NCBI RefSeq assembly: GCF_000007145.1
Contig: NC_003902.1
Location: 3,896,497-3,928,496 of the forward strand
DNA length: 32,000 nt
Direction of reading: 5' to 3'
Source: Xanthomonas campestris pv. campestris str. ATCC 33913
GTDB taxonomy: Bacteria; Pseudomonadota; Gammaproteobacteria; Xanthomonadales; Xanthomonadaceae
Below, in pieces: positions 2,075 to 30,726 of the stretch. The position numbers were made by a program, and so were the translations under genes. Below the pieces are notes generated by a model. It saw only the letters and a program-made list of their open reading frames with translations. It did not search any database and was not told the DNA's origin. Numbering within the stretch: the first letter of the stretch is position 1; the number at the start of each line of letters is the position of its first letter.

Positions 2075-2085
2075 CCTCGCCCAAC

Positions 2086-13788: not shown

Positions 13789-14550
13789 ATGACCGTACGC
13801 TCCCGCCGCCTCCGCCATCCGATTTTCCGCCTTGCCGCCGGCCTGCTGCTAACCATCGGCCTGTGCGCAGGCTCCGCCAACGCGCAAGTGGTCATCGTTA
13901 ACCCGACGGGAGAGGGAAAGGATATTGCGGAGTATGCGGAACAGGCCAAGCGCTGGACCGAGACGATCAAGCAGTACCAGCAGGAGCTGGATCATTACAA
14001 GCAGCAACTCATCAATTTGACGAGCTTGAACTTTCTGCGCCCCCCCTTGGACGATAAGTTCGTCTTGCGGGAACCAGGCTATGGCCTTGAGTTTACCTGT
14101 CCAGGAGCACAAGCCAGCGGCATCGCGGGCATTCTCGAGCAGATCAAGTCCATCGCACCCACGATGAACGGGAATATGGCGGAGGAGCAGCTGAAGGTCT
14201 GCGCCCGCATTGTCATGGCGCAAAACTCCCAATACAACGAATCGGTCACCATGCTCAAGCGCTTGGTGCAACGTAACACCGAATTTGAGGCCATTGAGCG
14301 CCAGCGCGGTAGAGTGGGTACTAAACAAGGCGCATTGGCAGCCAACGATAACGAAGTAAAGCGTTTCACGGCACGTAATGCGCTGGAAATGAGTCATTGG
14401 GAAGCCAAGATGAAAGCCTACGATGTCTATATTGCGGGACTCAAGGATGACCAGACCCTGCTGGCCAAGCGCGCGCTTGAAGGCGACAAGGGCAATTTGC
14501 TGGGACAGGTCGTGCAAGCAGCAGCATTGAAGATTGCGCTGTCCAAATGA
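13789..14550 (+). CDS. virB5: Type IV secretion VirB5/TrbJ-like protein
   Basis: Track ORF 13696..14550 (GTG) trimmed to the ATG at 13789, giving the signal peptide MTVRSRRLRHPIFRLAAGLLLTIGLCAGSANA. The mature N-terminus QVVIVNPTG..IAEYAEQAKRWTETIKQYQQELDHYKQQLINL resembles the VirB5/TrbJ helical opening. It lies immediately upstream of a virB6 homologue. Confidence 0.65.
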   Translation: MTVRSRRLRHPIFRLAAGLLLTIGLCAGSANAQVVIVNPTGEGKDIAEYAEQAKRWTETIKQYQQELDHYKQQLINLTSLNFLRPPLDDKFVLREPGYGLEFTCPGAQASGIAGILEQIKSIAPTMNGNMAEEQLKVCARIVMAQNSQYNESVTMLKRLVQRNTEFEAIERQRGRVGTKQGALAANDNEVKRFTARNALEMSHWEAKMKAYDVYIAGLKDDQTLLAKRALEGDKGNLLGQVVQAAALKIALSK

Positions 14551-14597
14551 ATTAGCGGGCAACCAAAGCCCAGATCACGACGCACAGGCAAACAGCA

Positions 14598-15719
14598 ATG
14601 GACGTTTTTTTTCATGGCGCGGCAAGCTGGCTGCAGCCGCTTGCGGACGCCAATCTCGGCGACTTCGTTTTCTTCAAGCTGGTCAACGATTACTTCAACC
14701 GGGAAATCCAGGAATTTGGCCTTGAGCTGATGAAGCGGGCCATGAAGTGGGTCAGCGCGATCGCGCTGACGGTCACCACGCTGTGGGTGCTGATCTTGGG
14801 TTACCGCATCGCCACCGGGCAGTCGCGCGAGAGCGCGATGGCCACCATGATCAAGGCCGCCAAGGTTGCAATCATCATCAGCCTGGCCTCGGCCCTCGGG
14901 GTCAACGGCGCCATGCTGCACCAGACCATGACCGAGAACCTGGACAAGGAAATCCATCGCCTGTTCACAGGCGATGAGGGCACCGCCGCCGATGCCATCG
15001 ACGAGAACCTGGCCTACACACAGGTCGCAATGGCCACACTGGATGCGGTGCGCGTAGATCCGGCCCAGCCGGAAGTGCTGGAGAAAAAAGGTCGCGCCAT
15101 GCTCATGGCAGGCTTCGGTACCGCCAGCCCACCGATGGCCGCAGGCGCGATGCTGTTGCTGTTCAAGTTCACCATGGCCTTCTTGATCGGCATCGGGCCG
15201 ATCTTCATCCTGGCGCTGGTCTTCGACCAGACCAAGGACCTGTTCAAGAAGTGGCTGTTCTACGTCATCGGCACCTTGTTCTCGATGTCCATGCTGTCGG
15301 TGGTGACGGCCATGGTGCTCAAGTTCACTGCCAAGGTGGCCGCCGCCTACTGGGCGGTCAAGTTCATCCCCCTGGCCAGCGCCGAAGGCCTCTCCAGCCA
15401 GGCGCTGCAGCAGGGTGGCATCGGCCTGATCATGACCATGCTCATCGTCACCGTACCCACCATCGCCGCCGCACTATGGCAGGGCAATATGGGCACGTTC
15501 ATGGCCTACTCGGCGTTTGGGGCTGCAGCAAGCCCAGGACCACAGGGGCAGCCGGCTGGGTCGTATATGCCTAGGCAAGATGCGCCGAATGGAGACAGCA
15601 AAGCTAGCTCCAATATAAACACTACTAGGGCAGCTACAGGCACCCCCGCTGATTCTCAGCAAGTAGCACCCAGTTACGTTGGTAACGCTATAAAGAATAA
15701 TGACGGCCGTCTTCTGTAG
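14598..15719 (+). CDS. virB6: Type IV secretion VirB6/TrbL-family inner-membrane protein, copy 1
   Basis: 373 aa, polytopic. TrbL/VirB6-like core AGAMLLLFKFTMAFLIGIGPIFILALVFDQTKDLFKKWLFYVIG. Unique hydrophilic C-terminal tail (RQDAPNGDSKASSNINTTRAATG...). Confidence 0.85.
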   Translation: MDVFFHGAASWLQPLADANLGDFVFFKLVNDYFNREIQEFGLELMKRAMKWVSAIALTVTTLWVLILGYRIATGQSRESAMATMIKAAKVAIIISLASALGVNGAMLHQTMTENLDKEIHRLFTGDEGTAADAIDENLAYTQVAMATLDAVRVDPAQPEVLEKKGRAMLMAGFGTASPPMAAGAMLLLFKFTMAFLIGIGPIFILALVFDQTKDLFKKWLFYVIGTLFSMSMLSVVTAMVLKFTAKVAAAYWAVKFIPLASAEGLSSQALQQGGIGLIMTMLIVTVPTIAAALWQGNMGTFMAYSAFGAAASPGPQGQPAGSYMPRQDAPNGDSKASSNINTTRAATGTPADSQQVAPSYVGNAIKNNDGRLL

Positions 15720-15788
15720 CAGAATATATGGAACTAACAACATTTACGCCATCATTATCACAAGCAAAAATATATTTACGAATTATAA

Positions 15789-16337
15789 ATGAATAAGAAA
15801 ATCGTAACTTTAATCCTTTTAAGCTTCTTAAGCTTTTTTTCGCCGAGTTCTTTCGCAGAAGGTAATTGCCCCCCAGGGCAGTATCCTATTGGCGGACAAG
15901 GCGCCGTAGCGTGTGCACCCATTCCTCAGGACGGCAACTTAACTCAGCAGCCTGCCCGACCTCTCGGAAAATGGATAAAAACTTGGGGAGCAATTGCGAT
16001 GGGATGGATGGGACCTGTTCCATACTACGCAGTACCTACGGGAATGCTTTCCGAAACTGAGGCTGAGACAGAGGCGCTGGCGCGTTGCTCGAAAAAGGGC
16101 CCCAAAGATTGCGCAATTAAACTTACCTATTTCAATCAATGCGCTGCCATAGCCGAGCCGCAAACGGCTGAAAACCTGATACCAGATGGTAGCGTAACAA
16201 TTTTTACTGGGAATGCATCAATAGATGGGGCATCGAGCAAGGCAAAAGAAGAGTGTAAAAATCGGAACAAAGATTTTCCTGTGACATGCAAAGTGATCTA
16301 CAAAAATTGCTCGAAGCAAATTTTTCAAAAATTCTAG
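15789..16337 (+). CDS. Secreted Cys-rich DUF4189-like protein, cassette 1
   Basis: 182 aa. Signal peptide MNKKIVTLILLSFLSFFSPSSFA, then CPPGQYP...PLGKWIKTWGAIA...EAETEALARC...DCAIKLTYFNQCAAIAEP...CKVIYKNCSKQIFQKF. The WGAIA...C...C...NQCAA pattern matches my memory of DUF4189. Visibly AT-rich. Confidence 0.75.
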   Translation: MNKKIVTLILLSFLSFFSPSSFAEGNCPPGQYPIGGQGAVACAPIPQDGNLTQQPARPLGKWIKTWGAIAMGWMGPVPYYAVPTGMLSETEAETEALARCSKKGPKDCAIKLTYFNQCAAIAEPQTAENLIPDGSVTIFTGNASIDGASSKAKEECKNRNKDFPVTCKVIYKNCSKQIFQKF

Positions 16338-16503
16338 TTCCAATTGAAAAACAGCATTAATAGCCAGGGAAATGCCATGAAAAATCGTGCTCTCCTAGGT
16401 TTTTTGGCATCACCGCAACATAGATTGCACAGATTGCAGGTCGTGACAGTACCAGGTAATCCCCTGCTAAAATAACTAACCCTTCATCTTCTGTAAACTA
16501 GGC

Positions 16504-16734
16504 GTGTCCACAGATTGCTGGCTTCCTATTGATCCAGCCACGGACACATTTACAGTGAACAATCCGCAACGCTTCAACGCAGTATCCGCCCAGGTGTTTG
16601 CGCGCGTCTTCCCTATCGCGTACCCACGTGGCAGCCCCCAAAGTCCGAGCGTGCGGTACCGGGCAGTAATTGGCTTCTACTGCATCCATGGCGTGCAGCT
16701 TCCCAGGCAACGCTGGTTCACCTGGGCGTGTTAA
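16504..16734 (+). CDS. Conserved small ORF (DCWLP family), cassette 1 copy; GTG start directly after stops, possibly degenerate
   Basis: Core DCWLPIDPATDTFTVNNPQRFNAVSAQVFARVFP aligns with the copies at 20677 and 26350. Many conserved residues use different synonymous codons. Confidence 0.45.
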   Translation: MSTDCWLPIDPATDTFTVNNPQRFNAVSAQVFARVFPIAYPRGSPQSPSVRYRAVIGFYCIHGVQLPRQRWFTWAC

Positions 16735-16882
16735 CTGATACGTTGGCTCCTAAATTTATGCTGACCCTGACAATTCGCGTTGTTGCACTAGCGCGTTGTC
16801 AAGAGTAGCGCGGATCGCTCCATGCGCGGCTAAACTGCGCATCTTCATTGCGCAATGCGCGCAGGCAGCAAAAGCATCTCCA

Positions 16883-17536
16883 ATGAATCCCAAGATTTTC
16901 GGCCGTTTCGCTTTCCTCCTCGTGCCCTTCTTCCTTGCAGGATGCAAGCCCATGAATGCCCCCAGCGAACCTTCGTCTCCCTACAACGTCGACACCGATC
17001 CGGTCTATCGGAAGAACCCGCATCCGGAACAGGCATATCGCATCGCCATGACGATTGAAGACGCGCCTGGGCCGTTCGAATGGATCTCCGGCACAGCGTT
17101 TTACGAGATGACCAACCGCGATGCGTGCACGCCTTTTGATCGTTCGCTGGGAATGTCGACAAAGCAAAAAGAGGATGCAATCCCCATCCATTTCGACAAA
17201 ACCAGTGACACGACGTATGTGGCAACCATCTATGCCGATGGCATGGTCGATGCTGACTATTACGGCAAGGGCCTTTGCACCTTCGTACTCAATGGAGTTG
17301 GAATCTCATTGAGAGCGACTGGAAAAAAAGAAGAGACCCGATTCCAGCCTGCACTGTTCAAGAACGAGATTTATAGCTCAGCACCCAAGGTTACCTATTT
17401 TTGGAAAGAGCGTTACCCACAAGCAGGTATGGATGATTTTCCTGACGGTGGCGAAGCTAGGCTTGACCAATTCAATGATGACGCGCGGAAAAACATTTTC
17501 AAGGTGACCCTGACTACTGCTAAGGTGAATCCATGA
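16883..17536 (+). CDS. Lipoprotein, putative cognate immunity protein for lipase 1
   Basis: Track ORF 16796..17536 (TTG) trimmed to MNPKIFGRFAFLLVPFFLAGC (lipobox LAGC). Its stop overlaps the lipase start (ATGA at 17533-17536). It is paralogous to the genes at 21399 and 27099. Confidence 0.8.
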   Translation: MNPKIFGRFAFLLVPFFLAGCKPMNAPSEPSSPYNVDTDPVYRKNPHPEQAYRIAMTIEDAPGPFEWISGTAFYEMTNRDACTPFDRSLGMSTKQKEDAIPIHFDKTSDTTYVATIYADGMVDADYYGKGLCTFVLNGVGISLRATGKKEETRFQPALFKNEIYSSAPKVTYFWKERYPQAGMDDFPDGGEARLDQFNDDARKNIFKVTLTTAKVNP

Positions 17537-18879
17537 GCCTCACTAGCCAACAGTATGCAGTCCTTTCGAGAGACGTATACGACGAGCCGAAAAAGGTGGG
17601 AGAGAATAGCGACCCTGCAAACATTGGCGGTGAGTTTTATAAGCGGCTCAAATATGTAGATAGCCCATCGGGCTATCAAGGCATCGTCTATCAGCGAGTT
17701 GATACAAAAGAGATCATCGTCGCTCACCGTGGCACAGAGACTGAGCGGCAGCTCAAAGAAGATGGTCTGTACACCGATGGCGGCATGGTCACGGCACGCT
17801 ACAACAACCAAGCTGCCGAGGCACTTGAGTTGACCCGCTATGCGCTGAACTATGCCCACGAATTGGGCAAGGGCGGTAAGTCTCCTCAGGTCACCGTCAC
17901 TGGCCACTCGCTCGGGGGCGATCTGGCACAGGTCACGGCGCATCACTATGGCCTTAAAGGCGAGACCTTCAATGCGTACGGCGCGGTTAGCCTGGATCGC
18001 CGTATTCCCGAAGGTGGCTCGGATGTGATCAATCACGTGATGGCTGGTGATGCGGTCAGTGCTGCCAGCAAGCATTATGGTCAAGTCAAGATCTACGCCA
18101 CGCCACAAGAAGTCGCCACCTTGCAGAAGGCCGGTTACGCCAATGACCGCAGCCTGTTGGATGACCGCAATCCGGCGGTCGCCAAACCGCTTGGCGACTC
18201 GCATAGGATGCATAACTTCCTCCCTGTCGATGGCGACGGCAAGCCGGATCGCTCGGTGCTGGAAGACCCCAAATCACAGCAGCTGGCGCAGCAGTACGCG
18301 CCGATGATCGACAAGTACCGCGACGATGTGGCGCTGCTACGGGGCGGCCTGACCCTGGCATCGCGCAGGCTCCAGTCCATGGATGTGGTCGATGGCATCG
18401 ATCATCTGCGCGGCCCTCTAGCTCCGGGTGCCGGCGCGGCCGAGATAGCGGCAGAGCGCTGGAAGGAAACCCAACAGCGCATGCAGCGCGAAGACGCGCC
18501 GGTCTATGTGACCCCTGGCTGGAAGCTGCCCCTGGGCAATACCCCCGAGCGCTGCGTAGATCCAGGCGCGGCGGCCATGTCTAATGATCCGCTGTACCGC
18601 TCCATCCACAGCAAACTGCCCCAAGGCACCTCCGATGCCGTGGCCATGCATGCCACCGTCGAGGCCAAACGCGCTGGCATCGTCGACATTAACCAGCTGC
18701 GCAGCGTGACCGTGCAAGACGGCAACGCCTGGATCGTCGGCAACACGCCGGGCTTCCGGGCCAAGGTCGATCTGGCGGCGGAAGCACCGCCCGTGCAGGA
18801 AAGTTTGCGCCAGTCACAGGCTTTGGAGACGCAGCGATCGCAGGAGATGGCCCAGCCGTCGCCGACGCGTGTAATGTAA
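17533..18879 (+). CDS. Class-3 lipase/phospholipase with XVIPCD-like C-terminal domain (putative X-T4SS effector), copy 1
   Basis: 448 aa. IIVAHRGTE, nucleophile elbow VTVTGHSLGG (Ser codon 17908-17910), later GDAVS and GDSHRMHNF. The C-terminus is DPLYRSIHSKLP...AKRAGIVDINQLRSVTVQDGNAWIVGNTPGFRAKVDL...VQESLRQSQALETQRSQ. Confidence 0.8.
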   Translation: MSLTSQQYAVLSRDVYDEPKKVGENSDPANIGGEFYKRLKYVDSPSGYQGIVYQRVDTKEIIVAHRGTETERQLKEDGLYTDGGMVTARYNNQAAEALELTRYALNYAHELGKGGKSPQVTVTGHSLGGDLAQVTAHHYGLKGETFNAYGAVSLDRRIPEGGSDVINHVMAGDAVSAASKHYGQVKIYATPQEVATLQKAGYANDRSLLDDRNPAVAKPLGDSHRMHNFLPVDGDGKPDRSVLEDPKSQQLAQQYAPMIDKYRDDVALLRGGLTLASRRLQSMDVVDGIDHLRGPLAPGAGAAEIAAERWKETQQRMQREDAPVYVTPGWKLPLGNTPERCVDPGAAAMSNDPLYRSIHSKLPQGTSDAVAMHATVEAKRAGIVDINQLRSVTVQDGNAWIVGNTPGFRAKVDLAAEAPPVQESLRQSQALETQRSQEMAQPSPTRVM

Positions 18880-18883
18880 GGCC

Positions 18884-20068
18884 ATGATCAAGCGGATCGC
18901 ACCGATGACTGCCCCGATACCGACTGCCACTGCTGCAGGCCGGTGTGCGCCGCGCGGGACAAGCTGGTTGGGGCCCTTGGCCGATATCGGCTTCGGTGAC
19001 TTCATTTTCTTCAAACTTGTCAACGATTACTTCAGCAACGAGATCCAGAAGTTCGGGCTGGAGCTGATGCGCAACAGCATGCGCTGGGTCAGCACCATCG
19101 CACTGACGGTCACCACGCTGTGGGTGATGATCCTGGGCTACCGCATCGCCACCGGGCAGTCGCGCGAGAGCGCCATGGCCACGATGATCAAGGCCGGCAA
19201 GGTCGCCATCATCATCAGCATTGCCTCGGCACTCGGGGCCAATGGCGCCATGCTGCACCAGACACTGACCGAGAACCTGGACAAGCAAATCCATGGGCTG
19301 TTCACCGGCAAGGAAGGCAGCACTGCCGCCGATGCCATCGACGAAAATCTGGCCTATACACAGTTGGCGCTGACCGCGCTGGATGCGGTCCGTATCGAAC
19401 CCAATGACACCGAAGTGCTGGAAAAGAAGAGCCGGGCCATCTTCATGGCCAGCTTCGGCACCGCCAGCCCGCCGATGGCCGCCGGGGCGATGCTGCTGCT
19501 GTTCAAGTTCACCATGGCCTTCTTGATCGGGATCGGGCCGATCTTCATCCTGGCGCTGATCTTCGACCAGACCAAGGACCTGTTCAAGAAGTGGCTGTTC
19601 TACATCATCGGCACACTGTTCTCGATGGCCATGCTCTCGGTGGTGACGGCCATGGTGCTCGAGTTCACCGCCAAGGTGGCCAAGGCCTACTGGGCGGCAG
19701 AAATCATCATGCTCGGCAATGCCGAAGGCCTGTCGACCCAGGCCCTGCAGCAGGGCGGTATCGGGTTGCTCATGACGGTGCTGATCATCAGCGTCCCCAC
19801 AATGGTTGCGGCCGTATGGCAGGGCAACATGGGCAACTTCATGCACTTCTCGGCATTTGGGGGCGCCACCGCATCGAGCCCAGGACCGCAGGGGCAGCCG
19901 GCTGGGTCGTATGTGCCGCAGCAGATTGCGGCAAATAGGGATGGCGAGTCGGAAAAGCAGGTTTCGCAGGCAACAGCAACCAAGGTAACAGGCGCGCCAA
20001 CAACCCAAGTAACCCAGCCGATCGGTTCGCGCGGGCAAGCGGGACGAGGTGGCACGCAAGATGTTTGA
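18884..20068 (+). CDS. virB6: VirB6/TrbL-family protein, copy 2
   Basis: 394 aa with the same core as copy 1. It starts 4 nt after the lipase-1 stop. Unique tail IAANRDGESEKQVSQATATKVTG.... Confidence 0.85.
   Translation: MIKRIAPMTAPIPTATAAGRCAPRGTSWLGPLADIGFGDFIFFKLVNDYFSNEIQKFGLELMRNSMRWVSTIALTVTTLWVMILGYRIATGQSRESAMATMIKAGKVAIIISIASALGANGAMLHQTLTENLDKQIHGLFTGKEGSTAADAIDENLAYTQLALTALDAVRIEPNDTEVLEKKSRAIFMASFGTASPPMAAGAMLLLFKFTMAFLIGIGPIFILALIFDQTKDLFKKWLFYIIGTLFSMAMLSVVTAMVLEFTAKVAKAYWAAEIIMLGNAEGLSTQALQQGGIGLLMTVLIISVPTMVAAVWQGNMGNFMHFSAFGGATASSPGPQGQPAGSYVPQQIAANRDGESEKQVSQATATKVTGAPTTQVTQPIGSRGQAGRGGTQDV
19001..19924 (+). repeat. 924-bp near-identical direct repeat, copy A (virB6-2 core)
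   Basis: Manual alignment with 23550-24473 at a constant offset of 4549 bp gives 6 mismatches and no indels. Confidence 0.9.
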
Positions 20069-20118
20069 TAAGTTTGATCCAAACTAATTAACTATGTCGC
20101 CGTATAGGTTAGATATTC

Positions 20119-20634: not shown

Positions 20635-20676
20635 AATCGATATCGATTTTTAAAAAGTAAGTTTTCATGGGAAAGT

Positions 20677-20844
20677 ATGGGTCTATTAGGACTGCCACTG
20701 GTCCCAGATTGCTGGTTGCCAGTGAATCCGGCGACCGGGGCATTGACGGTCATCGCCCCATACCGCTTCAACACGGTCTCGGCACAGATGTTTACACGTA
20801 TCTGCCCGAACGCATTTCTAACCCCTGACAACGTTCGCTGTTAG
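20677..20844 (+). CDS. Conserved small ORF (DCWLP family), cassette 2; the only copy with an ATG start and intact frame
   Basis: Below the ORF-track size cutoff. My translation is MGLLGLPLVPDCWLPVNPATGALTVIAPYRFNTVSAQMFTRICPNAFLTPDNVRC (55 aa). Against copy 1, 13 of 21 identical residues use different synonymous codons by my manual count. Confidence 0.55.
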   Translation: MGLLGLPLVPDCWLPVNPATGALTVIAPYRFNTVSAQMFTRICPNAFLTPDNVRC

Positions 20845-20871
20845 TTGAGTAAAGCGCGTCGGAGCTGAGTA

Positions 20872-23431: not shown

Positions 23432-23435
23432 GGCC

Positions 23436-24623
23436 ATGATCGAGCGGATCGCACCGATGACTACCCCGATGCCCACTGCCACGGCAGCCCGGTGTGCGCC
23501 ACGTGCGGCAAGCTGGTTGCAGCCCTTGGCCGATATCGGCCTCGGTGACTTCATTTTCTTCAAACTGGTCAACGATTACTTCAGCAACGAGATCCAGAAG
23601 TTCGGGCTGGAGCTGATGCGCAACAGCATGCGCTGGGTCAGCACCATCGCACTGGCGGTCACCACGCTGTGGGTGATGATCCTGGGCTACCGCATCGCCA
23701 CCGGGCAGTCGCGCGAGAGCGCCATGGCCACGATGATCAAGGCCGGCAAGGTCGCCATCATCATCAGCATTGCCTCGGCACTCGGGGCCAATGGCGCCAT
23801 GCTGCACCAGACACTGACCGAGAACCTGGACAAGCAAATCCATGGGCTGTTCACCGGCAAGGAAGGCAGCACTGCCGCCGATGCCATCGACGAAAATCTG
23901 GCCTATACACAGTTGGCGCTGACCGCGCTGGATGCGGTCCGTATCGAACCCAATGACACCGAAGTGCTGGAAAAGAAGAGCCGGGCCATCTTCATGGCCA
24001 GCTTCGGCACCGCCAGCCCGCCGATGGCCGCCGGGGCGATGCTGCTGCTGTTCAAGTTCACCATGGCCTTCTTGATCGGGATCGGGCCGATCTTCATCCT
24101 GGCGCTGATCTTCGACCAGACCAAGGACCTGTTCAAGAAGTGGCTGTTCTACATCATCGGCACACTGTTCTCGATGGCCATGCTCTCGGTGGTGACAGCC
24201 ATGGTGCTCGAGTTCACCGCCAAGGTGGCCAAGGCCTACTGGGCGGCAGAAATCATCATGCTCGGCAATGCCGAAGGCCTGTCGACCCAGGCCCTGCAGC
24301 AGGGCGGTATCGGGTTGCTCATGACCGTGCTGATCATCAGCGTCCCCACAATGGTTGCGGCCGTATGGGAGGGCAACATGGGCAACTTCATGCACTTCTC
24401 GGCATTTGGGGGCGCCACCGCATCGAGCCCAGGACCGCAGGGGCAGCCGGCCGGGTCGTATGTGCCGCAGCAGTCGTCTAGGTCTACAGATCGGCCTACT
24501 GAGGTTGCGAACGACACACCCAGAACAGTATCCCGCGCAGTCGGTCAACCGGGAAGCTCTGATTCTATTCCTGTGCCAGGTTCTCGCGGCAATGCCGGAA
24601 GAAATGAAAGTGGCAATGCCTAA
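23436..24623 (+). CDS. virB6: VirB6/TrbL-family protein, copy 3
   Basis: 395 aa. The core is almost nucleotide-identical to copy 2. Unique tail SSRSTDRPTEVANDTPRTVSRAVG.... Confidence 0.85.
   Translation: MIERIAPMTTPMPTATAARCAPRAASWLQPLADIGLGDFIFFKLVNDYFSNEIQKFGLELMRNSMRWVSTIALAVTTLWVMILGYRIATGQSRESAMATMIKAGKVAIIISIASALGANGAMLHQTLTENLDKQIHGLFTGKEGSTAADAIDENLAYTQLALTALDAVRIEPNDTEVLEKKSRAIFMASFGTASPPMAAGAMLLLFKFTMAFLIGIGPIFILALIFDQTKDLFKKWLFYIIGTLFSMAMLSVVTAMVLEFTAKVAKAYWAAEIIMLGNAEGLSTQALQQGGIGLLMTVLIISVPTMVAAVWEGNMGNFMHFSAFGGATASSPGPQGQPAGSYVPQQSSRSTDRPTEVANDTPRTVSRAVGQPGSSDSIPVPGSRGNAGRNESGNA
23550..24473 (+). repeat. 924-bp near-identical direct repeat, copy B (virB6-3 core)
   Basis: See 19001-19924. 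Sequence identity breaks abruptly at both ends, at the N-terminal leader and at the C-terminal tail. Confidence 0.9.
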
Positions 24624-25156
24624 GATTGCTTGGTTTTGAGCCATACACGAGGTTGTATGAATATGACATCTAATCGATTTTTTTTGCTTCTTCTTTTGAT
24701 CATTGGGCTTCCGTCAATGGCCGAGCAGGGCTGTCCACCTGGACAAATTCCTGCGCAGGCAAACGGCAATATCACCTCCTGCGGTCCAATTCCCTCCGGT
24801 TATTACGAGCAACAGGGCTCTGCCGCCCCTCGGCCGATTGGAAAATGGATTAAGACCTGGGGAGCTGTTTCACTTGATGGCTCGGGTACTGTAGGAGTTG
24901 CCTACGGTAAACTTTCTAAGCGTGAAGCACAGCAAGGTGCTATTTCCAGTTGTGTCGAGGCTGGTGGCGAAAAGTGTCATGACTGGGCTACCTATTATAA
25001 CCAGTGCGCAGCTGTTGCAGAACCTTACAAAGATGGAAAATCCATTGGTGGAAAATTACAATTCGTTGGAGGCGCGGCACTTGAACAAGCCAAAGCTGAT
25101 GCAGAGAAGAAATGCACTGTCGCAAATAATAGCTCATGCCGAGTAATTTACTCTAA

Positions 25157-26315
25157 GGAACCTCTGAACAACGCACCACAGATACGCGACACTACCCGCC
25201 TGATGTTGAGGGGTGATCCATGCAACTGACGTTCGGTGACGCTGAGGGCCTGGGCAAGCGCAAGCAGACGCGCCGGGAGATCTTTCTGGCCGAGATGGAG
25301 CAGGTCGTCCCGTGGCAGCAACTGCTCGGGCTGGTCGCGCCGCACTATCCGGTCTCGGGGCGGCCAGGTCGGCAGCCGTACGCACTGGCGACGATGTTGC
25401 GGATTCATCTGCTGCAGCAGTGGTATGCGTTGAGCGATCCGGCGATGGAAGAAGCACTGCACGAGATCCCGACCTTGCGGCGCTTTGCCCAGCTCGGTGG
25501 CTTGGACAACGTTCCGGACGAGACCACGATTCTCAACTTTCGCCGCCTGCTGGAGACCCATGGCCTTGCCGCGCGGATGCTGGAAGCGGTCAACGCGCAT
25601 CTGGCGCGCAAGGGCCAGAGCCTGCGGTCGGGCACGATCGTCGATGCGACGCTGATCGCGGCGCCCAGTTCGACCAAGAACGCCGACCATGCGCGCGACC
25701 CTGAGATGCATCAGACCAAGAAGGGCAATCAGTGGTATTTCGGGATGAAGGCGCACATCGGCGTGGATGAATTTTCCGGGTTGGTGCACCACGTCCATTG
25801 CACAGCCGCCAACGTCGCCGATGTCACGGTGACGCACGCATTGCTGCATGGCAAAGAAGACAGCGTGTTTGGCGACAGCGGCTACACCGGTGCGGATAAG
25901 CGCGAAGAACTGCAGGACTGCGAGGCTGCATTTTTCATTGCTGCCAAGCGTTCGGTGCTTCAAGCCATCGGCAACAAGCGGGAGCGTGCTCGGGAACAGC
26001 GCTGGGAACACTTCAAGGCCAGCGTGCGTGCGAAGGTGGAGCATCCGTTCCGGGTGATCAAGCGCCAGTTCGGTTACACCAAGGTCCGCTATCGCGGCCT
26101 GGCGAAGAACACCGCGCAGGTGCTGACGCTGTTTGCGCTGTCAAACCTGTGGATGAAGCGAAAGCAGTTATTGCCTGCTATGGGGAGCGTGCGCCTGTAA
26201 CGCAGGCAACACCCTGCAAACGCGCCGGAAACGGCAAAAAAATCGAGGATCTGAGCGCCGTCAGCCTGGCCGATGTAGTTGGGCTCATCCTCCGACGCCG
26301 TTGATCAGACCATCC
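25157..26315 (+). mobile_element. IS5-family insertion sequence (IS5 subgroup), 1159 bp
   Basis: Terminal inverted repeats GGAACCTCTGAACAACG (25157-) and the complement of CGTTGATCAGACCATCC (-26315) match at 13/17 positions. They are flanked by a 4-bp direct repeat CTAA (25153-25156 and 26316-26319), the classic IS5 target. Single transposase ORF. Confidence 0.9.
25220..26200 (+). CDS. IS5-family DDE transposase
   Basis: 326 aa. MQLTFGDAEGLGKRKQTRREIFLAEMEQVVPWQQL...DPEMHQTKKGNQWYFGMKAHIGVD...VEHPFRVIKRQFGYTKVRYRGLAKN is closely parallel to the E. coli IS5 transposase as I recall it. Confidence 0.95.
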   Translation: MQLTFGDAEGLGKRKQTRREIFLAEMEQVVPWQQLLGLVAPHYPVSGRPGRQPYALATMLRIHLLQQWYALSDPAMEEALHEIPTLRRFAQLGGLDNVPDETTILNFRRLLETHGLAARMLEAVNAHLARKGQSLRSGTIVDATLIAAPSSTKNADHARDPEMHQTKKGNQWYFGMKAHIGVDEFSGLVHHVHCTAANVADVTVTHALLHGKEDSVFGDSGYTGADKREELQDCEAAFFIAAKRSVLQAIGNKRERAREQRWEHFKASVRAKVEHPFRVIKRQFGYTKVRYRGLAKNTAQVLTLFALSNLWMKRKQLLPAMGSVRL

Positions 26316-26349
26316 CTAATTGTTCTGATCAAATTTTTAAAAAGTTTTG

Positions 26350-26544
26350 ATGTACTACAAGATGGTTGGCGCTCTCTCAGTTTGTTAGTTGCCAGTAAAT
26401 CCGGCGACCGGCGCCTTTACGGTCACCAAACTATACTGCTTCAAAGGGGTCTCGGCACAGGTGTTTGCACGCATCTGTCAAAGGCATTTCCTACCGGCAA
26501 TCCTAAATAGTGCGTCCCGAACCCCTGACCACATTCGCCGTTAG
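26350..26544 (+). pseudogene. Conserved small ORF (DCWLP family), cassette 3 copy, inactivated by an in-frame TAG
   Basis: The ATG at 26350 overlaps the restored DUF4189-3 stop (TGATG). The reading is MYYKMVGALSVC-stop-LPVNPATGAFTVTKLYCFKGVSAQVFARIC.... The TAG at 26386-26388 replaces the conserved TGG (Trp) of the other copies. The track ORF 26301..26510 is in a different frame. Confidence 0.55.
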
Positions 26545-26571
26545 TTGAGTAAAGCGCGCCGGAGTTGCGTA

Positions 26572-27102
26572 ATGCATAGAGTGCTGTCCCCGCATGACGC
26601 AGATGGGTGCCGGTCAACCGCCGGCGTACGCAACATGCTGACCATGCTCTTGCTGACAACCTTACTCACCGCTAGTTTGGTCGTCTTGGCCTATCGCACT
26701 TCGCTTGGTGTCCTAATGGAATTTGCACAGTGTGCTGCCATTATCGGAGCCGCCCTGCACTTCGCCATCGTCGCAGTGCTTGTGGGGTTTGTTGCACGAG
26801 CCCTGACTGTCTGGAGAAGGCTGCACGCAGAAGGAAAACAGACGAGCGAACTGAAACAGTTGCAGCGGGTCATCATCAGCGGAGCCGCTATGACGCTGCT
26901 GATGTTTTTTCTCGCCGTCATTGCAGCTTGCATCCCACCATTAATGAAGATAATGAAGCAGATTCCCGAATTCGGGATGGTGTTCGCGCTGATGCTCATG
27001 TCCTTGTTGCTTCATAACGTGAACATCAACCGTATCTGCAAACGACTGACCGCTGCCATCACGGCCGCGCAGCAGGCTGCACAACGCACGATGGCAGCAT
27101 GA
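26572..27102 (+). CDS. Four-TM membrane protein of unknown function, cassette 3
   Basis: Track ORF 26545..27102 (TTG) trimmed to the ATG homologous to 20872 (MHRVLSPH...). Highly similar to the cassette-2 copy; its stop overlaps the lipoprotein-3 start. Confidence 0.75.
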   Translation: MHRVLSPHDADGCRSTAGVRNMLTMLLLTTLLTASLVVLAYRTSLGVLMEFAQCAAIIGAALHFAIVAVLVGFVARALTVWRRLHAEGKQTSELKQLQRVIISGAAMTLLMFFLAVIAACIPPLMKIMKQIPEFGMVFALMLMSLLLHNVNINRICKRLTAAITAAQQAAQRTMAA

Positions 27103-27606
27103 ACGGTTATCTGAACATCAAGATTGTTGGCTGTTTTTTCCTGGTTCTCTTAGCAGGATGCAACCCCATGAATGCTGATTCTGAAAGACACGACACCAGC
27201 GAGACTATCGCCGAGGGCGATCCGGTTTACCGCAAGAATCCACATCCGACGCAGGCGTACCGGATCACGATGACAATCGAAGATGCGCCTGGGCCGTTCG
27301 AGGGGGTGTCGGGGACCGCATTTTATGAAATGACTAACCGAGATACATGCACGCCAATTGATCGATCATTAGGCATGTCGACAAAGCAGAAAGAAGATGG
27401 AATTCCCATCACTTTCGAAAAACTCAACGACACAACATACGTGGCGAAGATTTATGCCGACGGAATGGTCGATGCAGATTATTACGGGAAAGGCACCTGT
27501 AATTTCGAGCTGGATGGTGTCGGCATTTCGCTCAAGGCGACCGTGACCTGCCCCCGCTGAGCCGTACCACGTGAAGCTGTAAAGTCCGTCAACCACGAGG
27601 ACGGAC

Positions 27607-27873
27607 ATGAAGAAGAGTCGTTTCACCACCGAGCAGATCATCGGATTCATCAAGCAGGCGGATGCCGGGATGGCGGTGGCTGAGCTGTGCCGCCAGCACG
27701 GTTTCAGCCCGGCCAGCTTCTACCAGTGGCGGGCCAAGTACGGCGGCATGGAGGCCGAAGACGCGAAGCGCCTGAAGGAGCTGGAGCAGGAGAACAACCG
27801 CCTGAAGCGGTTGCTGGCCGAGGCGCACCTGGACATCGAGGCGCTGAAGGTCGGGTTCGGGGTAAAACGCTAG
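27607..27873 (+). CDS. IS3-family transposase OrfA (HTH)
   Basis: 88 aa. [47 protein letters not shown] followed by a leucine-zipper-like [19 protein letters not shown]. Confidence 0.9.
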
Positions 27874-28739
27874 CCCCGCAACGCAAGCGCGAGGCAATCC
27901 GGCGCATGTGCGAGCTGACGTCGATCAGCGAGCGCCGGGCTTGTCGCCTTGCGGGGATCTCCCGCGATGCTTTCCGCCACGCGCCGACACCCACGCCGGC
28001 GACGCAAACCCTGTCGGCCAGACTGGTGGAACTGGCGCAGGCGCGTCGCCGCTTCGGCTATCGCCGCCTGCACGACCTGCTGCGCCCGGAGTTTCCGCAG
28101 GTGAACCATAAGAAGATCTACCGTCTGTACCGCGAGGCGAAGCTGAGCGTGCGCCGGCGCAAGAAGGCCAAGTTCCCGGCGGCACAGCGGCAGCCGTTAC
28201 GGCCAGCGCGGCATCCCAACGAGGTAATCAGCATGGACTTCGTCTTTGATCAGTTGGCCAGTGGCCGCCGCATCAAATGCCTGACCGTCGCCGACGACTT
28301 CACCCATGAATGCGTGGACATCGCGGTGGACCATGGCATCAGCGGGGCTTACGTGGTGCGTGTGCTGGAGCAGATCGCCTGCTTCCGCGGCTATCCCCGC
28401 GCGGTGCGCACGGACAACGGCCCGGAGTTCACCAGCCGCGCCTTCATCGCTTGGGCACAGCAGCGTGGCATCGAACACATCCTGATCGAACCCGGCAAAC
28501 CCATGCAGAACGGCTACATCGAGAGCTTCAACGGCAAGTTCCGCGACGAATGTCTCAACGAACACTGGTTCACGTCGCTGATCCAGGCTCGCGAGGTCAT
28601 CGCCGATTGGCGGCGTGACTTCAACGAGGTACGTCCGCACAGCAGCTGTGGTCGCATCCCGCCAGCGCAGTTTGCCTCCAACCACCGAGCACAAACCGGC
28701 AACAACGCAGTACCCTTCAACCCCGGGCTTTATCAGTAA
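27687..28739 (+). CDS. IS3-family transposase OrfB (DDE catalytic domain), expressed as an OrfAB fusion by a -1 frameshift
   Basis: Coordinates are the open frame from the track. Homology-bearing sequence starts near 27873 ([27 protein letters not shown]...). DDE region WVSMDF-like [36 protein letters not shown]. The frame is -1 relative to orfA. I could not pinpoint the slippery site. Confidence 0.85.
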
Positions 28740-28983
28740 TCACTGGTATGGCCGGTGGGGGCAGGTCAACCGGAAAGCATGAAGACACGAGGTTTGAGCC
28801 AGCTCTATTCAAAAATGAGATTCATAGCAGAGCTCCTAAAGTCACTTATTTCTGGAAAGGCCGTTATCCCAAAGAAGATATTGACAACTTCCCAGACAGC
28901 GGAAAAGTCAGACTGGACCAGTTCAACAATGATGCCCGAGGAAACATATTTAAAGTTACGCTAATCACGGAAGAGGTAATGCC

Positions 28984-30360
28984 ATGAGCCTGACGAGCCA
29001 ACAATATGCAGCCCTTGCGAAAGATGCCTACGATGAACCGCCTGAAACTGGAGCGAGCAGTCGCCCTGTCGATATCGGTGGCATTACCTATAAACGACTT
29101 GAGTATGTAGACAGTCCTTCAGGCTATCAGGGCATTATCTATCAGCGGATCGACACCAACGAGATCATCGTCGCCCATCGCGGCACCGAGACTGAGCGTG
29201 AGCTCAAGCAGGATGGTGTCTACACCGATGGCGGCATGGTCGCAGCACGTCACAATCGCCAGGCCGCCGAAGCAATTGAGTTGACCAAGCATGCGTTGGT
29301 TTATGCACAGAAACTCGGCAAGGACGGCGAAACGCTCGACGTCGCCGTCACCGGCCATTCCCTCAGCGGCAATCTGGCCCAGGTCACTGCACACCACTTT
29401 AGTCTCAAGGGCGAGACCTTCAATGCATACGGCGCGGTTAGCTTGGACCGCCGTATTCCCGAGGGCGGCACCGATGTCATCAATCATGTGATGGCTGGCG
29501 ATGCGGTCAGTGCTGCCAGCAAGCATTACGGCCAGGTCAAGCTCTACGCCACCCAGCAGGAGATTGCTACACTGGAAAAGGCTGGTTACGACAACACGCG
29601 CAGTGTGCTGGACGTACGTAATCCTATCGTTGCAAAAAAGTTGGGCGACTCGCACCGCATGCACAACTTCCTGCCGGAGGATGCCAACGGCAAACCAGAC
29701 CGCTCGGTCCTGGAAGACCCCAAGGCGCAACAGTTGGCGCACAAGTTTGCGCCGATGATCGACAAGTACCGTGATGACGTGGAGGTGTTGCGCGGCAGCG
29801 TGACCTTGGGTGTACGCGGTAATTATGGCCTGGCGGACGATGGAATCGATGCCTTGCGTGGCACCCTAGCACCCGGCGCCGGAAGTGCAGAGATGGCGGC
29901 GGCACGCTGGCAAGAGGTACAGCAGCGCATACAAAACGATCACGCACCGACGTATGTCGCGCCAGGCTGGAAAATGCCGATAGTCACATCTGGCAGCGAA
30001 GTTGCTGCACCGATGGCACCGCCTGGCCGGTTTGGCGAGCCTGCATCCGCATCGGTTCCCAACGACCCGCTTTACCAGGCCATCCACAGCAAGCTCCCCG
30101 CAGGCACTTCGCCGGCAGAGGCGATGTACGCCACAGTCGAGGCCAAGCGTGCAGGCATCCTGCGCGCCGATCAGCTGCAAAGCGTGACGTCGCATCAAGA
30201 CAATGTCTGGATCGTCGGGCAGACACCTGGCTTCCGGGTCAAGGTGGATCTATCAGACAGCGTGCCTCCCCTGCAGGAGAGCATCCGTCAGTCGCAAGCA
30301 CTCGATACGCAGCGGTCGCAGCCGGAAGTGACCCAGCAATCGCCTGCACGTGTAATGTAA
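28984..30360 (+). CDS. Class-3 lipase/phospholipase with XVIPCD-like C-terminal domain, copy 3 (nucleophile elbow altered to GHSLSG)
   Basis: 458 aa, full-length and closely similar to copy 2. The motif is VAVTGHSLSG: codon 29365-29367 is AGC where copies 1 and 2 have GGG/GGC. Confidence 0.8.
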   Translation: MSLTSQQYAALAKDAYDEPPETGASSRPVDIGGITYKRLEYVDSPSGYQGIIYQRIDTNEIIVAHRGTETERELKQDGVYTDGGMVAARHNRQAAEAIELTKHALVYAQKLGKDGETLDVAVTGHSLSGNLAQVTAHHFSLKGETFNAYGAVSLDRRIPEGGTDVINHVMAGDAVSAASKHYGQVKLYATQQEIATLEKAGYDNTRSVLDVRNPIVAKKLGDSHRMHNFLPEDANGKPDRSVLEDPKAQQLAHKFAPMIDKYRDDVEVLRGSVTLGVRGNYGLADDGIDALRGTLAPGAGSAEMAAARWQEVQQRIQNDHAPTYVAPGWKMPIVTSGSEVAAPMAPPGRFGEPASASVPNDPLYQAIHSKLPAGTSPAEAMYATVEAKRAGILRADQLQSVTSHQDNVWIVGQTPGFRVKVDLSDSVPPLQESIRQSQALDTQRSQPEVTQQSPARVM

Positions 30361-30364
30361 GGCC

Positions 30365-30724
30365 ATGATCGAGCGGGTCGCACCCATGACTGCCCCAGTG
30401 CCGACTGTCACGGCAGCCCGGTGTCCGCCGCGTGCGACAAGCCGGTTGCAGCCGCTGGCGGACGCCAACCTCGGCGACTTCGTTTTCTTCAAGCTGGTCA
30501 ACGACTACTTCAACCGGGAAATCCAGGACTTCGGTATGGCGTTGATGGAGCGAGCCATGCGCTGGGTCAGCACCATCGCATTGACCGTCACCACGCTGTG
30601 GGTGATGATCCTGGGCTACCGCATCGCCACTGGGCAGTCGCGCGAGAGCGCCATGGCCACGATGATCAAGGCCGGCAAGGTCGCCATCATCATCAGCATT
30701 TCGTGTGAGAGTTGTAGATCTTAA
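30365..30724 (+). pseudogene. virB6: VirB6/TrbL-family gene, copy 4, truncated after ~112 codons
   Basis: Homology to the other copies (…MATMIKAGKVAIIISI) stops at 30700. The frame then reads SCESCRS-stop. The remaining ~280 codons of a virB6 are missing. Confidence 0.85.
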
Positions 30725-30726
30725 GA

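Follow-up and report, generated by a model that had tools for sequence, protein, structure and literature searches.

The window analysed here is a stretch of 32,000 nucleotides from Xanthomonas campestris pv. campestris ATCC 33913, and positions 13789-30724 of its + strand were found to hold a virB5-like gene, three full-length virB6 genes, a virB6 stub of 119 aa and three cassettes with the order DUF4189 gene, 4-TM gene (not in every cassette), lipoprotein gene and lipase gene. This threefold gene order, proposed in a preliminary description of the sequence, was confirmed on the + strand for all genes and their positions. The repeat units, taken from virB6 to virB6, were reproduced at 4286, 4552 and 6929 nt, the third measuring 4537 nt without its two IS elements, and a repeat check on the array returned direct-repeat families spaced at 4337-4552 and 6929 nt. 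The joint between lipase stop and virB6 start (GTAATGTAAGGCCATGATC), previously described as conserved, is exact at 18871, 23423 and 30352 and is also exact in three other species. Neighbouring cassette genes overlap by 1-4 nt according to their coordinates, in agreement with the earlier reading, and the cassettes each have the appearance of a coupled operon. No T4SS core genes were present in the flanks of the array within the window (1-13700 and 30727-32000), again as had been noted. This layout is real and widespread in Xanthomonas, and most of its parts have already been described.

Directly upstream of virB6, the virB5-like gene (13789-14550, +) encodes a secreted protein of 253 aa with a signal peptide and with Cys104 and Cys138 placed 33 residues apart, features that fit the description of X-T4SS VirB5 (Sgro 2019). 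The protein had no match in the Pfam search and only a weak one to NCBIfam TrbJ (30 bits, below the cutoff of 100.55); two of its UniRef homologues bear the name VirB5. The assignment of the virB6-like proteins was borne out by Pfam TrbL/VirB6 matches for virB6-1 (14598-15719, +; 373 aa with hydrophobic segments, E 9.8e-31) and virB6-2 (18884-20068, +; 394 aa in its longest ORF, E 8.4e-33) and by a precomputed TrbL match of the called product for virB6-3 (23436-24623, +; 395 aa), with virB6-1 also aligning over its full length with R388 TrwI (7o3v_F, E 9.3e-7). At the amino-acid level virB6-2 is 77% identical to virB6-1 and 90% to virB6-3; the first ~900 nt of virB6-2 and virB6-3 are 98-100% identical and their tails divergent. 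The claim that a virB6 paralogue follows each lipase held at 18884 and 23436, but virB6-4 (30365-30724, +) proved to be a 5' stub of 119 aa at the array end, which shares 81-87% identity with the N-terminal parts of the other virB6 copies and is found in all X. campestris strains examined.

The DUF4189 genes encode proteins of the Tpf family. The product of tpf-1 (15789-16337, +; PF13827, 64.6 bits against a cutoff of 25) is secreted, with a signal peptide and two N-terminal plus six globular cysteines, as described for XAC2611, and that of tpf-2 (20119-20634, +; 89.6 bits against the same cutoff) is only 43-47% identical to the products of tpf-1 and tpf-3. The 5' part of tpf-3 (24657-25156, +; precomputed PF13827 match) is cut by an IS5 element, with its last 10 codons continuing at 26316-26350 and a rebuilt C-terminus (..IYS joined to NCSDQIFKKF) that agrees with its paralogues. 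These proteins had been presented as accessories of unknown role, but a 2026 preprint describes Tpf (DUF4189) proteins as VirB5-binding anti-fratricide factors, whose genes usually lie just downstream of virB6 and are often multi-copy. A small ORF without a family match is found at 16504-16734 (+; copy 1, status uncertain) and 20677-20844 (+; copy 2), its peptide DCWLPxxPAT..FNxVSAQxFAR being conserved across loci; copy 3 is interrupted by a stop codon, and pN/pS between distant intact copies is ~0.3.

Four hydrophobic segments characterise 4-TM protein 2 (20872-21402, +; 176 aa), which is confined to type B cassettes, gave no match in Pfam or NCBIfam searches and is 85% identical to 4-TM protein 3 (26572-27102, +); its gene overlaps the lipoprotein 2 start by 4 nt. 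As had been reported, the gene is absent from cassette 1, but this absence is not a loss: cassette 1 lacks it because it represents a distinct, old cassette type and not a deletion derivative; in all species where this type was seen, its lipase measures ~448 aa and the 4-TM gene is lacking. Lipoprotein 1 (16883-17536, +) of this type A cassette is a putative, X-Tfi-like immunity protein with the lipobox LAGC at residues 18-21; it had no match in Pfam and NCBIfam searches, and its gene overlaps the lipase 1 start by 4 nt. Lipoprotein 2 (21399-22055, +; lipobox LAGC), also a putative immunity protein, shares 73-80% identity with lipoproteins 1 and 3, the last of which is cut by an IS3 element into a 5' part (27099-27543, +) and a 3' part (~28773-28987).

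The description of the effectors as GHSLGG lipases stood for cassette 1, where lipase 1 (17533-18879, +; 448 aa) exceeded the cutoffs of both Lipase_3 and DUF6792, but not for lipase 3 (28984-30360, +; 458 aa), which is 89% identical to lipase 2 (22055-23431, +; 458 aa, identified by family matches) and carries the variant GHSLSG. The lipases scored 23 bits with Lipase_3 (cutoff 22) and 25.5-34 bits with DUF6792 (cutoff 25), and lipase 1 has a dN/dS of 0.14 against its paralogues. An XVIPCD had also been expected on these proteins. Their C-termini gave no passing match to the Pfam XVIPCD, the profile built on this lipase-type C-terminal domain did not reach the solved XVIPCD of XAC2609, and a Foldseek search with the domain returned no significant match. 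The same domain was found in 298 representative proteins (83-1267 aa), where it forms the extreme C-terminus and the N-terminal domains are PG_binding_1, M23, GH19, SLT, NlpC/P60, AHH, Zeta toxin, Tle1 and Lipase_3; sub-threshold PF20410 matches fall in the same register, and hhalign against the canonical XVIPCD gave E 1.6e-4. It is predicted to have the order alpha-alpha-beta-beta-beta, then a Gln-rich tail and an Arg near the end, and an AlphaFold2 model of the C-terminal 105 aa of lipase 2 (pLDDT 78) has the same order of elements. The lipase C-terminus is a divergent XVIPCD-like domain, and this domain is likely to be the secretion signal.

Two IS elements lie in cassette 3. The first, an IS5-family element of 1159 bp (25157-26315, +; NCBIfam transpos_IS5_4, 337.8 bits against a cutoff of 140), is bordered on both sides by a CTAA target duplication and disrupts tpf-3; the second, an IS3-family element of 1225 bp (27544-28768, +; NCBIfam transpos_IS3, 236 bits against a cutoff of 160), has the inverted ends TGACCTGCCCCC with ACCG flanks and disrupts lipoprotein 3. 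Such damage, together with the GHSLSG of the lipase in this cassette, would be expected if the island were a decaying relic, an unused array whose repeats, IS elements and stubs mark erosion stages of a once-contiguous X-T4SS locus, as would the frameshifts and deletions seen in virB5, virB6 and tpf of other strains and the literature finding that the island and the virB cluster are both missing from the majority of Chinese isolates of X. campestris pv. campestris, which are still fully virulent. We consider such decay unlikely, as cassettes 1 and 2, virB5 and three virB6 genes are intact, the architecture is intact in several species, also at the same pfk site, and dN/dS values (lipases 0.14, lipoproteins 0.16, virB6 core 0.22) indicate purifying selection and long-term constraint.

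The virB5-virB6 pair had been called orphan and is better termed detached, since literature on X. campestris pv. campestris 8004 and ATCC33913 locates virD4 and the virB cluster in other parts of the genome. The locus corresponds to XVR07 ('VirB6 protein'), a previously published variable region at ~1.04 Mb in strain 8004 and ~0.9 Mb from the virB core cluster (XVR12) at ~1.96 Mb; by array hybridisation, all five other strains scored + or (+) for XVR07 also have XVR12, and virB5 and virB6 were reported to be located elsewhere in ATCC33913 and 8004 (Sgro 2019). For virB1-4, virB7-11 and virD4 in the source genome we rely on literature for other strains, and the literature searched held no report of T4SS killing activity in X. 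campestris pv. campestris. The same module, virB5-virB6-tpf-(4TM)-lipoprotein-lipase, is widespread in Xanthomonas, where it lies beside pfk or within ICEs, and is also present in Pseudomonas; in the loci examined it never adjoins virB1-4/8-11, and on ICEs it moves as one, including virB5 and virB6. These data support, as first suggested, a virB5/virB6 locus of the X-T4SS type that carries effector/immunity cassettes in tandem, and the linkage of virB6 to cassettes is a real, recurrent genomic pattern. The arrays are rearranged between strains: X. campestris strains have 1-3 full virB6 copies, some deletions fuse cassettes, and virB6 copies are lost or fused independently of lipases (for example in loci L006 and L001). 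Effector-free arrays that combine virB6 fragments with tpf also occur (L028, L040), and arrays often terminate in a virB6 5' fragment, as they do in L019, L026, L028, X. citri and this window.

Compared with each other, units 2 and 3 have a mosaic identity profile, at 98-100% in the virB6 core, ~45-55% through the virB6 tail and tpf, and 73-98% thereafter. The dS between the virB6-2 and virB6-3 cores is 0.015, compared with 0.44 between lipase-2 and lipase-3, and that between virB6-1 and virB6-2 is 0.5, compared with 1.4 for their lipases. The preliminary description had proposed one channel subunit per effector, so that every VirB6 paralogue would serve only the effector of its own cassette, as its inner-membrane channel or stalk subunit, and VirB6 paralogy would follow effector paralogy in function; cassette linkage in many species with an exact lipase-virB6 joint, the co-travel of virB5 and virB6 with the module on ICEs and the intactness of the three full-length virB6 genes (dN/dS ~0.2) are all consistent with this. 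As virB6 is homogenised and the adjacent effectors are more diverged, an effector-matched VirB6 is disfavoured, in our view decidedly improbable, and recombination-driven cassette turnover is favoured. The virB6 cores have not diverged in step with the adjacent effectors (those of copies 2 and 3 are almost the same, with lipases 11% apart in amino acids), lipases are kept in L006 and L001 where virB6 was lost or fused, L028 and L040 are effector-free, and X. citri, with one intact virB6, secretes about a dozen X-Tfes according to the literature. The additional virB6 copies resemble by-products of recombination more than channels for individual toxins, although purifying selection on three full-length copies is unlike pure by-products and more than one copy may be functional.

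The reading that we favour, and hold to be probable, is that the array is the detached, variable 3' arm of a bacteria-killing Xanthomonadales-type T4SS, with cassettes acquired by recombination and redundant virB6 copies. VirB5 (pilus tip/stalk) and VirB6 (inner-membrane stalk base) would supply two structural parts missing from the distant virB/virD4 cluster, through which secretion would take place. The class-3 lipase would be the toxin, probably exported by its XVIPCD-like C-terminal domain; the lipoprotein, plus the 4-TM protein in type B cassettes, would be the likely immunity protein, and Tpf may form a periplasmic shield against attack by sister cells, a function described in a single preprint. 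An ancestral virB6-tpf-immunity-effector unit may have been repeatedly duplicated, or imported, by homologous recombination with the conserved first ~900 nt of virB6 as crossover handle; crossover in virB6 would place one of its copies between neighbouring cassettes and leave its 5' stub at the array end. On this view the extra virB6 copies would encode redundant or alternative subunits whose similarity is maintained by gene conversion, and would not act as channels for particular effectors.

The virB6 tail and tpf form the sole strongly diversified segment (45-55% identity in DNA; tpf 43-47% in amino acids), which could mean that VirB6 is functionally paired with Tpf (or with both VirB5 and Tpf) and not with the effector, with the hypervariable VirB6 cytoplasmic tail and tpf as a strain-identity or self-recognition unit and extra tpf genes as orphan shields against rival VirB5 variants. 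Loci whose arrays consist only of tpf, or of tpf and virB6 fragments (L020, L021, L028, L040), accord with such a pairing, as does the preprint report that VirB5 is bound by Tpf with species-specific protection. We judge it quite unlikely, since ICE modules with 98-100% identical VirB5 have quite different first tpf genes, and therefore no simple one-to-one VirB5-Tpf match is seen within a module, and the low-complexity VirB6 tails may just hitch-hike with tpf.

A close counterpart is the 3' end of the chromosomal X-T4SS locus of X. citri 306, in which virB6 (XAC2612), Tpf XAC2611, X-Tfi XAC2610 and X-Tfe XAC2609 are followed by truncated virB6 (XAC2608/2607) and Tpf XAC2606, the same succession of virB6, DUF4189, immunity gene, effector with C-terminal secretion domain, virB6 piece and DUF4189 as found here. 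The array differs in repeating the unit threefold with full-length virB6 copies, in its lipase effector (a peptidoglycan hydrolase in X. citri), in its divergent XVIPCD-like type of C-terminal domain, in the 4-TM gene of type B cassettes and in its separation from the virB operon. The X. citri X-Tfe/X-Tfi pair XAC0574/XAC0573 likewise has its immunity gene upstream of the effector, a predicted phospholipase; X. axonopodis-group lipases of 428-437 aa, among which XAC0574 was not singled out, are 62-63% identical over the catalytic part, but are shorter and differ in their C-terminal region. CDI, Rhs and T6SS loci similarly contain orphan toxin-immunity arrays made of tandem modules, each after a piece of a conserved upstream gene that serves as recombination handle, with truncated copies at array ends; here, by contrast, the handle is a structural T4SS gene, often full-length, and the modules add the shield gene tpf. 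Several adjacent virB6 paralogues serving one T4SS with unknown division of labour are also found in Rickettsiales (rvhB6; Anaplasma virB6-1 to virB6-4; PMC7648143). Those paralogues have diverged strongly, are often very large and lie without effector/immunity genes between them, whereas the copies here share 75-90% identity and are homogenised. To call a single virB6 the norm for such operons was too strong, as X. citri has truncated additional copies downstream of its effector and the chromosomal vir cluster of X. euvesicatoria 85-10 has four virB6 copies, of the same clade, with an incomplete core T4SS (Thieme 2005; PMC10432156). Cassettes between these copies are not described in the available part of the latter report; in X. 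euvesicatoria ATCC 11633, two contigs (L021, L025) carry virB6-tpf-lipoprotein-lipase repeats.

The listed genes were found at 13789-30724 on the + strand, and the threefold repetition was clear in the DNA itself, where families of 300-nt copies shared 67-97% identity at spacings of 4337-4552 and 6929 nt. The units measured 4286, 4552 and 6929 nt, the third coming to 4537 nt once its two insertion sequences were subtracted, and a 19-nt joint (GTAATGTAAGGCCATGATC) was exact at 3/3 lipase/virB6 junctions of the array and recurred unchanged in three further Xanthomonas lineages. The preliminary description placed a virB6 paralogue after each lipase; full-length copies do follow lipases 1 and 2, but the fourth (30365-30724) amounts to an N-terminal stub of 119 aa. 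Both insertion sequences lie on the + strand and were assigned by transposase profiles above cutoff, terminal ends and flanking repeats: an IS5 element (25157-26315; CTAA flanks; transposase 337.8 bits vs cutoff 140) interrupts tpf-3, the third DUF4189 gene, ten codons short of its stop, and an IS3 element (27544-28768; ACCG flanks; 236.2 bits vs cutoff 160) interrupts lipoprotein-3. The island is flanked by housekeeping genes, with mpl, adk and PPi-PFK on one side and UCP029691 and H+-PPase on the other, and has a G+C content of 50-63% (window 13000-31000) vs 64-69% in those flanking genes, which is consistent with a foreign origin of the cassette interiors. A scan for promoters and terminators gave no enrichment relative to shuffled sequence. 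G+C minima lay over the tpf, 4-TM and lipoprotein genes. The layout was identical in CP155931.1, and genes identical to lipase 1 were located at ~1.0-1.07 Mb in several chromosomes.

Each effector had been proposed to be duplicated with its own VirB6 channel subunit. In a sliding comparison of the three units, the opening ~900 nt of virB6 matched between units 2 and 3 at 98-100% identity; the value fell to 45-55% in the stretch formed by the virB6 C-terminal tail and tpf, and rose again to 73-98% from the 4-TM gene through the lipoprotein gene to the lipase gene. Between copies 1 and 2, dS was 0.5 for virB6 and 1.4 for the lipases, with the lipoproteins saturated; between copies 2 and 3 it was 0.015 for the virB6 core vs 0.44 for the lipases. 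Given this identity mosaic and dS contrast, virB6 is either being homogenised or the shared recombination substrate, while the cassette content is older or imported. Homogenised virB6 beside diverged lipases is the opposite of what effector-matched subunits predict and makes an effector-specific VirB6 unlikely, the main point in its favour being that the extra full-length copies are intact; these may be used as redundant or alternative subunits. Purifying selection was detected in all families except tpf (dN/dS of 0.14 for lipase, 0.16 for lipoprotein, 0.22 for the virB6 core and 0.32 for 4-TM), and the tpf paralogues are so diverged (43-47% amino-acid identity) that their dS is saturated.

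Among X. campestris strains (six comparison loci, L001-L006), the number of full virB6 copies varied from one to three, with deletions fusing neighbouring cassettes. On the strength of the mosaic profile, the terminal virB6 stubs and this gain and loss between strains, the most economical model is one in which cassettes would be duplicated, swapped and lost via homologous recombination, with the conserved virB6 core as the handle; the likeness is to the orphan toxin/immunity modules of CDI and Rhs loci. Individual strain loci also showed an internal virB6 deletion hybrid (L001), a frameshifted virB5 (L002), a fusion of lipase 2 with cassette 3 (L006) and different insertion sequences (L002 and L005), and the terminal lipase 3 and virB6 stub were kept in 5/5 loci reaching the array end (L005 stops short).

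Comparison was extended to loci with the same or related lipases, to 28 species-representative loci with close VirB6 relatives and to one Lysobacter locus. Across these the order virB5, virB6, tpf, (4-TM), lipoprotein, lipase recurred as a unit, and two cassette types could be distinguished: type A, with tpf, lipoprotein and a ~448-aa lipase, and type B, which has a 4-TM gene between tpf and the lipoprotein gene and whose lipase is ~458 aa long in the window (448-460 across species). The window array is A + B + B. Cassette 1 as a 4-TM deletion derivative was rejected, the 4-TM-less type with its ~448-aa lipase being conserved across species. Tandem arrays separated by virB6 were found in at least seven other loci and often ended in a virB6 5' fragment; arrays of virB6 fragments with tpf, or of tpf alone, also occurred.

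The virB5-virB6 pair had been called an orphan, and core genes are indeed missing alongside it, but it is better termed detached, as already published, since Sgro et al. 2019 report that the X-T4SS locus is fragmented in ATCC33913 and 8004, with virB5 and virB6 located elsewhere. In strain 8004, a region annotated 'IS elements; VirB6 protein' (XVR07; 1,035,995-1,049,889; XC0856-XC0871; GC 57.7%) is separate from the virB cluster region (XVR12; 1.96 Mb; XC1631-XC1641), and in an array survey all strains scoring + or (+) for XVR07 also carried XVR12 (He et al. 2007). Profile scans and gene calls over the whole window gave no further T4SS gene, in agreement with the preliminary description, and core genes were likewise absent from the 10-kb flanks of matching genomes. 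A search for virB1-4 and virB8-11 beside virB6 was directed at the 28 species-representative loci and the Lysobacter locus; none was found in the loci whose flanks were covered, by precomputed Pfam annotation of gene calls for some and by Pfam scans of the longer upstream and flanking ORFs for seven others, and these flanks carried housekeeping or ICE genes. The Lysobacter locus (L044; L. antibioticus 76, CP011129.1, ~5.83 Mb) holds a virB5-like gene, virB6, tpf and tpf at 10001-13760, without an effector or nearby core genes, and so detached virB5/virB6/tpf arms exist outside Xanthomonas too. That such operons normally carry a single virB6 is too strong a statement: four virB6 copies are reported for the chromosomal cluster of X. 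euvesicatoria 85-10 (PMC10432156), and truncated N-terminal copies for X. citri and X. fuscans.

The module adjoins pfk in X. campestris, pv. asclepiadis, X. hortorum, X. euroxanthea and X. arboricola, and lies at other chromosomal sites in X. vasicola, Xanthomonas strain CP041382 and Lysobacter antibioticus. It was also found within ICEclc/PFGI-1-type ICEs (TraI_2, TraG_N, TraU) of X. citri CP015972, X. translucens, Xanthomonas sp. LMG 31884 and Pseudomonas syringae records; in the last, no X-T4SS core is expected. Complete ICE-borne modules adjoin TraI_2 in four comparison loci (L007, 4202-9374; L018, 9214-15328; L031, 9193-14276; L041, 5976-12861). In L007, L018 and L041 the module sits between a MASE1 gene and TraI_2.

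The TrbL/VirB6 profile (PF04610, cutoff 25.9) confirmed the virB6 assignments, with 107.6 bits (E 1e-30) for virB6-1 and 114.4 bits (E 8e-33) for virB6-2; virB6-3 has a precomputed TrbL match, and the 119-aa stub gave no match of its own. Residues 28-348 of virB6-1 align end to end with 5-324 of TrwI, the R388 VirB6 (7o3v_F; E 9.3e-7), and at least five hydrophobic segments (Kyte-Doolittle) mark it as polytopic. The virB5-like gene ends 47 nt 5' of virB6-1 and encodes a 253-aa protein with a signal peptide and Cys104 and Cys138, which fits the published description of X-T4SS VirB5 (200-280 aa with a cleavable signal peptide and, near the centre, two Cys separated by 11-33 residues; virB6-adjacent gene; Sgro 2019). 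Its similarity to NCBIfam TrbJ was weak (30.2 bits vs cutoff 100.55, over the N-terminal 66 residues alone), it had no Pfam match, and a family profile found nothing among PDB sequences. VirB5 proteins fold as a three-helix bundle bearing a globular appendage; here the AlphaFold2 model was of low confidence (mean pLDDT 65), with three long helices (42-79, 130-175, 180-231), and a Foldseek search with it against the PDB returned generic helical bundles and no significant match. By position, descriptive criteria and this weak profile similarity, the gene product is a putative VirB5.

The DUF4189 proteins had been described as secreted accessories of unknown role; the family and the secretion hold, but a role has been published, that of Tpf (10.64898/2026.05.09.723464). 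A Farah laboratory preprint (May 2026, 10.64898/2026.05.09.723464), the single source for this function, reports that XAC2611, a DUF4189 protein encoded just 3' of X. citri virB6, binds VirB5 and prevents X-T4SS fratricide, and that genes of this family, which it names Tpf, usually lie right 3' of virB6, are often unannotated and are often multi-copy. The products of tpf-1 and tpf-2 scored 64.6 and 89.6 bits against PF13827 (cutoff 25); the tpf genes of the window lie directly after virB6, and their products match the preprint's pattern of a signal peptide and 2 + 6 Cys. The X. citri order given there is virB6, XAC2611, XAC2610 (immunity), XAC2609 (effector), XAC2608/2607 (truncated virB6) and XAC2606 (second DUF4189), so that the stretch from virB6 to XAC2606 corresponds to one and a half copies of the window unit. 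In seven comparison loci (L007, L018, L020, L021, L022, L024 and L037), VirB5 was 98-100% identical across species and the first tpf after virB6 varied widely, from which it follows that tpf is replaced much faster than virB5. Simple within-module co-variation of VirB5 and Tpf was rejected, as the first tpf gene differs between modules whose VirB5 is identical.

The lipases passed their family profiles narrowly (Lipase_3, 23.1-23.4 bits vs cutoff 22; DUF6792, 25.5-34.3 vs 25). The nucleophile elbow at residue 124 reads GHSLG in lipases 1 and 2 and GHSLS in lipase 3, so that the GHSLGG motif attributed to all three stands for lipases 1 and 2, but lipase 3 (28984-30360) has GHSLSG at residues 124-129. 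As its tpf and lipoprotein partners are also disrupted by insertion sequences, lipase 3 may be an attenuated toxin. The lipoprotein genes adjoin the lipase genes on the 5' side, as first described, with a LAGC lipobox and a 1-4 nt stop/start overlap, and their products are putative cognate immunity proteins. The 4-TM proteins have four hydrophobic segments.

Whether the lipases end in an XVIPCD, the C-terminal signal of X-T4SS effectors, had been posed as a check on the effector assignment. The strict Pfam model (PF20410) matched neither the full lipases nor their isolated C-termini, even at E <= 10, and an NCBIfam scan also gave no match, but a divergent XVIPCD-like domain was found. Searches of PDB sequences with lipase 2 and with 7-sequence and 32-sequence C-terminal profiles missed the XAC2609 XVIPCD (7mu9), which a canonical PF20410-type profile does recover (7mu9_A, E 2.6e-5), and the lipase C-terminal model had no significant counterpart in the PDB by Foldseek. 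When the C-terminal profile was run in a word-indexed search, it returned only 22 proteins, mostly short and many partial, which gave no taxonomic picture. An exhaustive profile search placed the lipase-type domain of ~100 aa in 298 representative proteins of 83-1267 aa, always at the extreme C-terminus. The N-terminal parts scanned (86 proteins) carried peptidoglycan-binding, M23, GH19, SLT, lysozyme, NlpC/P60, AHH nuclease, Zeta toxin, Tle1 and lipase domains, a typical interbacterial toxin repertoire. [quoted passage not shown] Among the last 40 residues of each lipase, 6-7 are Gln, and the sequence closes with ARVM or TRVM, with Arg three residues from the end; a Gln-rich tail with Arg near the end has been described for XVIPCD (Oka et al. 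2022). We therefore call the domain an XVIPCD-like variant, having no PF20410 match yet sharing the C-terminal toxin distribution, sub-threshold matches, fold order and tail; judged from sequence and model, it probably works as an XVIPCD and is a candidate member of that family.

Canonical PF20410 was also present in 23/86 scanned proteins, and where coordinates were checked it lay ~30 residues N-terminal of the lipase-type domain. With a local profile, the two domains stood together in about 30/149 representatives (e.g. P0129, P0137, P0144 and P0147); some effectors thus carry both in tandem, an arrangement of which no description was found in the searched literature. A Tle1-like (DUF2235) phospholipase of X. 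hortorum, X. hydrangeae and X. arboricola (P0121) carries at its C-terminus (residues 386-491) a domain that shares 72-80% identity with its type-B lipase counterpart, so one signal domain has been swapped between two unrelated phospholipase classes.

From the sister-strain literature, the VirB5 and VirB6 of the island would complete the machine of the distant virB/virD4 cluster. The lipases, judging by family and domain architecture, would be recruited via their XVIPCD-like C-terminus, injected into rivals and directed against membrane phospholipids. Position and translational coupling suggest that the lipoproteins would neutralise incoming or leaking lipase in the periplasm, and that the type-B 4-TM protein may add inner-membrane protection or handling. 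Following the preprint and the divergence among tpf genes, Tpf-1 would block sister-cell attack by binding VirB5, and Tpf-2 and Tpf-3 may cover other VirB5 variants. With tpf-3 and lipoprotein-3 both cut by insertion sequences, cassette 3 would be disabled on its protective side, and its lipase additionally has the altered nucleophile elbow.

The X-T4SS, its effectors and immunity proteins (X-Tfe/X-Tfi), Tpf, the detachment of virB5/virB6 in X. campestris pv. campestris and the occurrence of several virB6 copies in Xanthomonas were largely known already. We found no description in the searched literature of regular cassettes with full-length virB6 repeats, of the two cassette types, of the mosaic homogenised virB6, of ICE mobility of the virB5-to-lipase module, into Pseudomonas too, or of an effector signal in an XVIPCD-like class that is large and escapes the Pfam model; catalogues of effectors that rely on this model are likely to be incomplete. 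Bacteria-killing T4SSs have been studied mainly in X. citri and S. maltophilia, with one virB6 and many effectors. Here the distal part (virB5, virB6, Tpf, immunity protein and lipase) behaves as a repeatable mobile unit apart from the core, with relatives in at least 12 Xanthomonas species, and offers a natural system for the role of VirB6 and VirB5 in substrate or target choice, the evolution of Tpf specificity and the turnover of toxin arsenals. A bolder reading, which we consider improbable, is that virB5-virB6-tpf-immunity-effector forms a self-contained mobile cartridge re-tooling a resident killing T4SS with a new stalk/tip pair, a shield to match and a toxin with a variant XVIPCD-like signal that would be recognised in no other setting; through stacking of cartridges, one machine would assemble VirB6 stalk bases of alternative or mixed type that differ in the effectors or targets they prefer, and the ICE copies in Xanthomonas and Pseudomonas would be the route of spread.

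Two smaller features were seen. A 106-aa Pseudomonas caspiana protein (P0124) has a 4-TM N-terminus fused to the last ~55 lipase residues, and looks like what a deletion within a type-B cassette would leave behind, here in a Pseudomonas genome. A small + strand ORF between tpf and the next gene (16504-16734, 20677-20844 and ~26350-26480), has the conserved peptide DCWLPxNPATG..FNxVSAQMFAR. Its pN/pS of 0.26-0.32 between distant copies points to a genuine small protein or to the remnant of a gene; stop codons interrupt the third copy of the window and those of at least four further loci.
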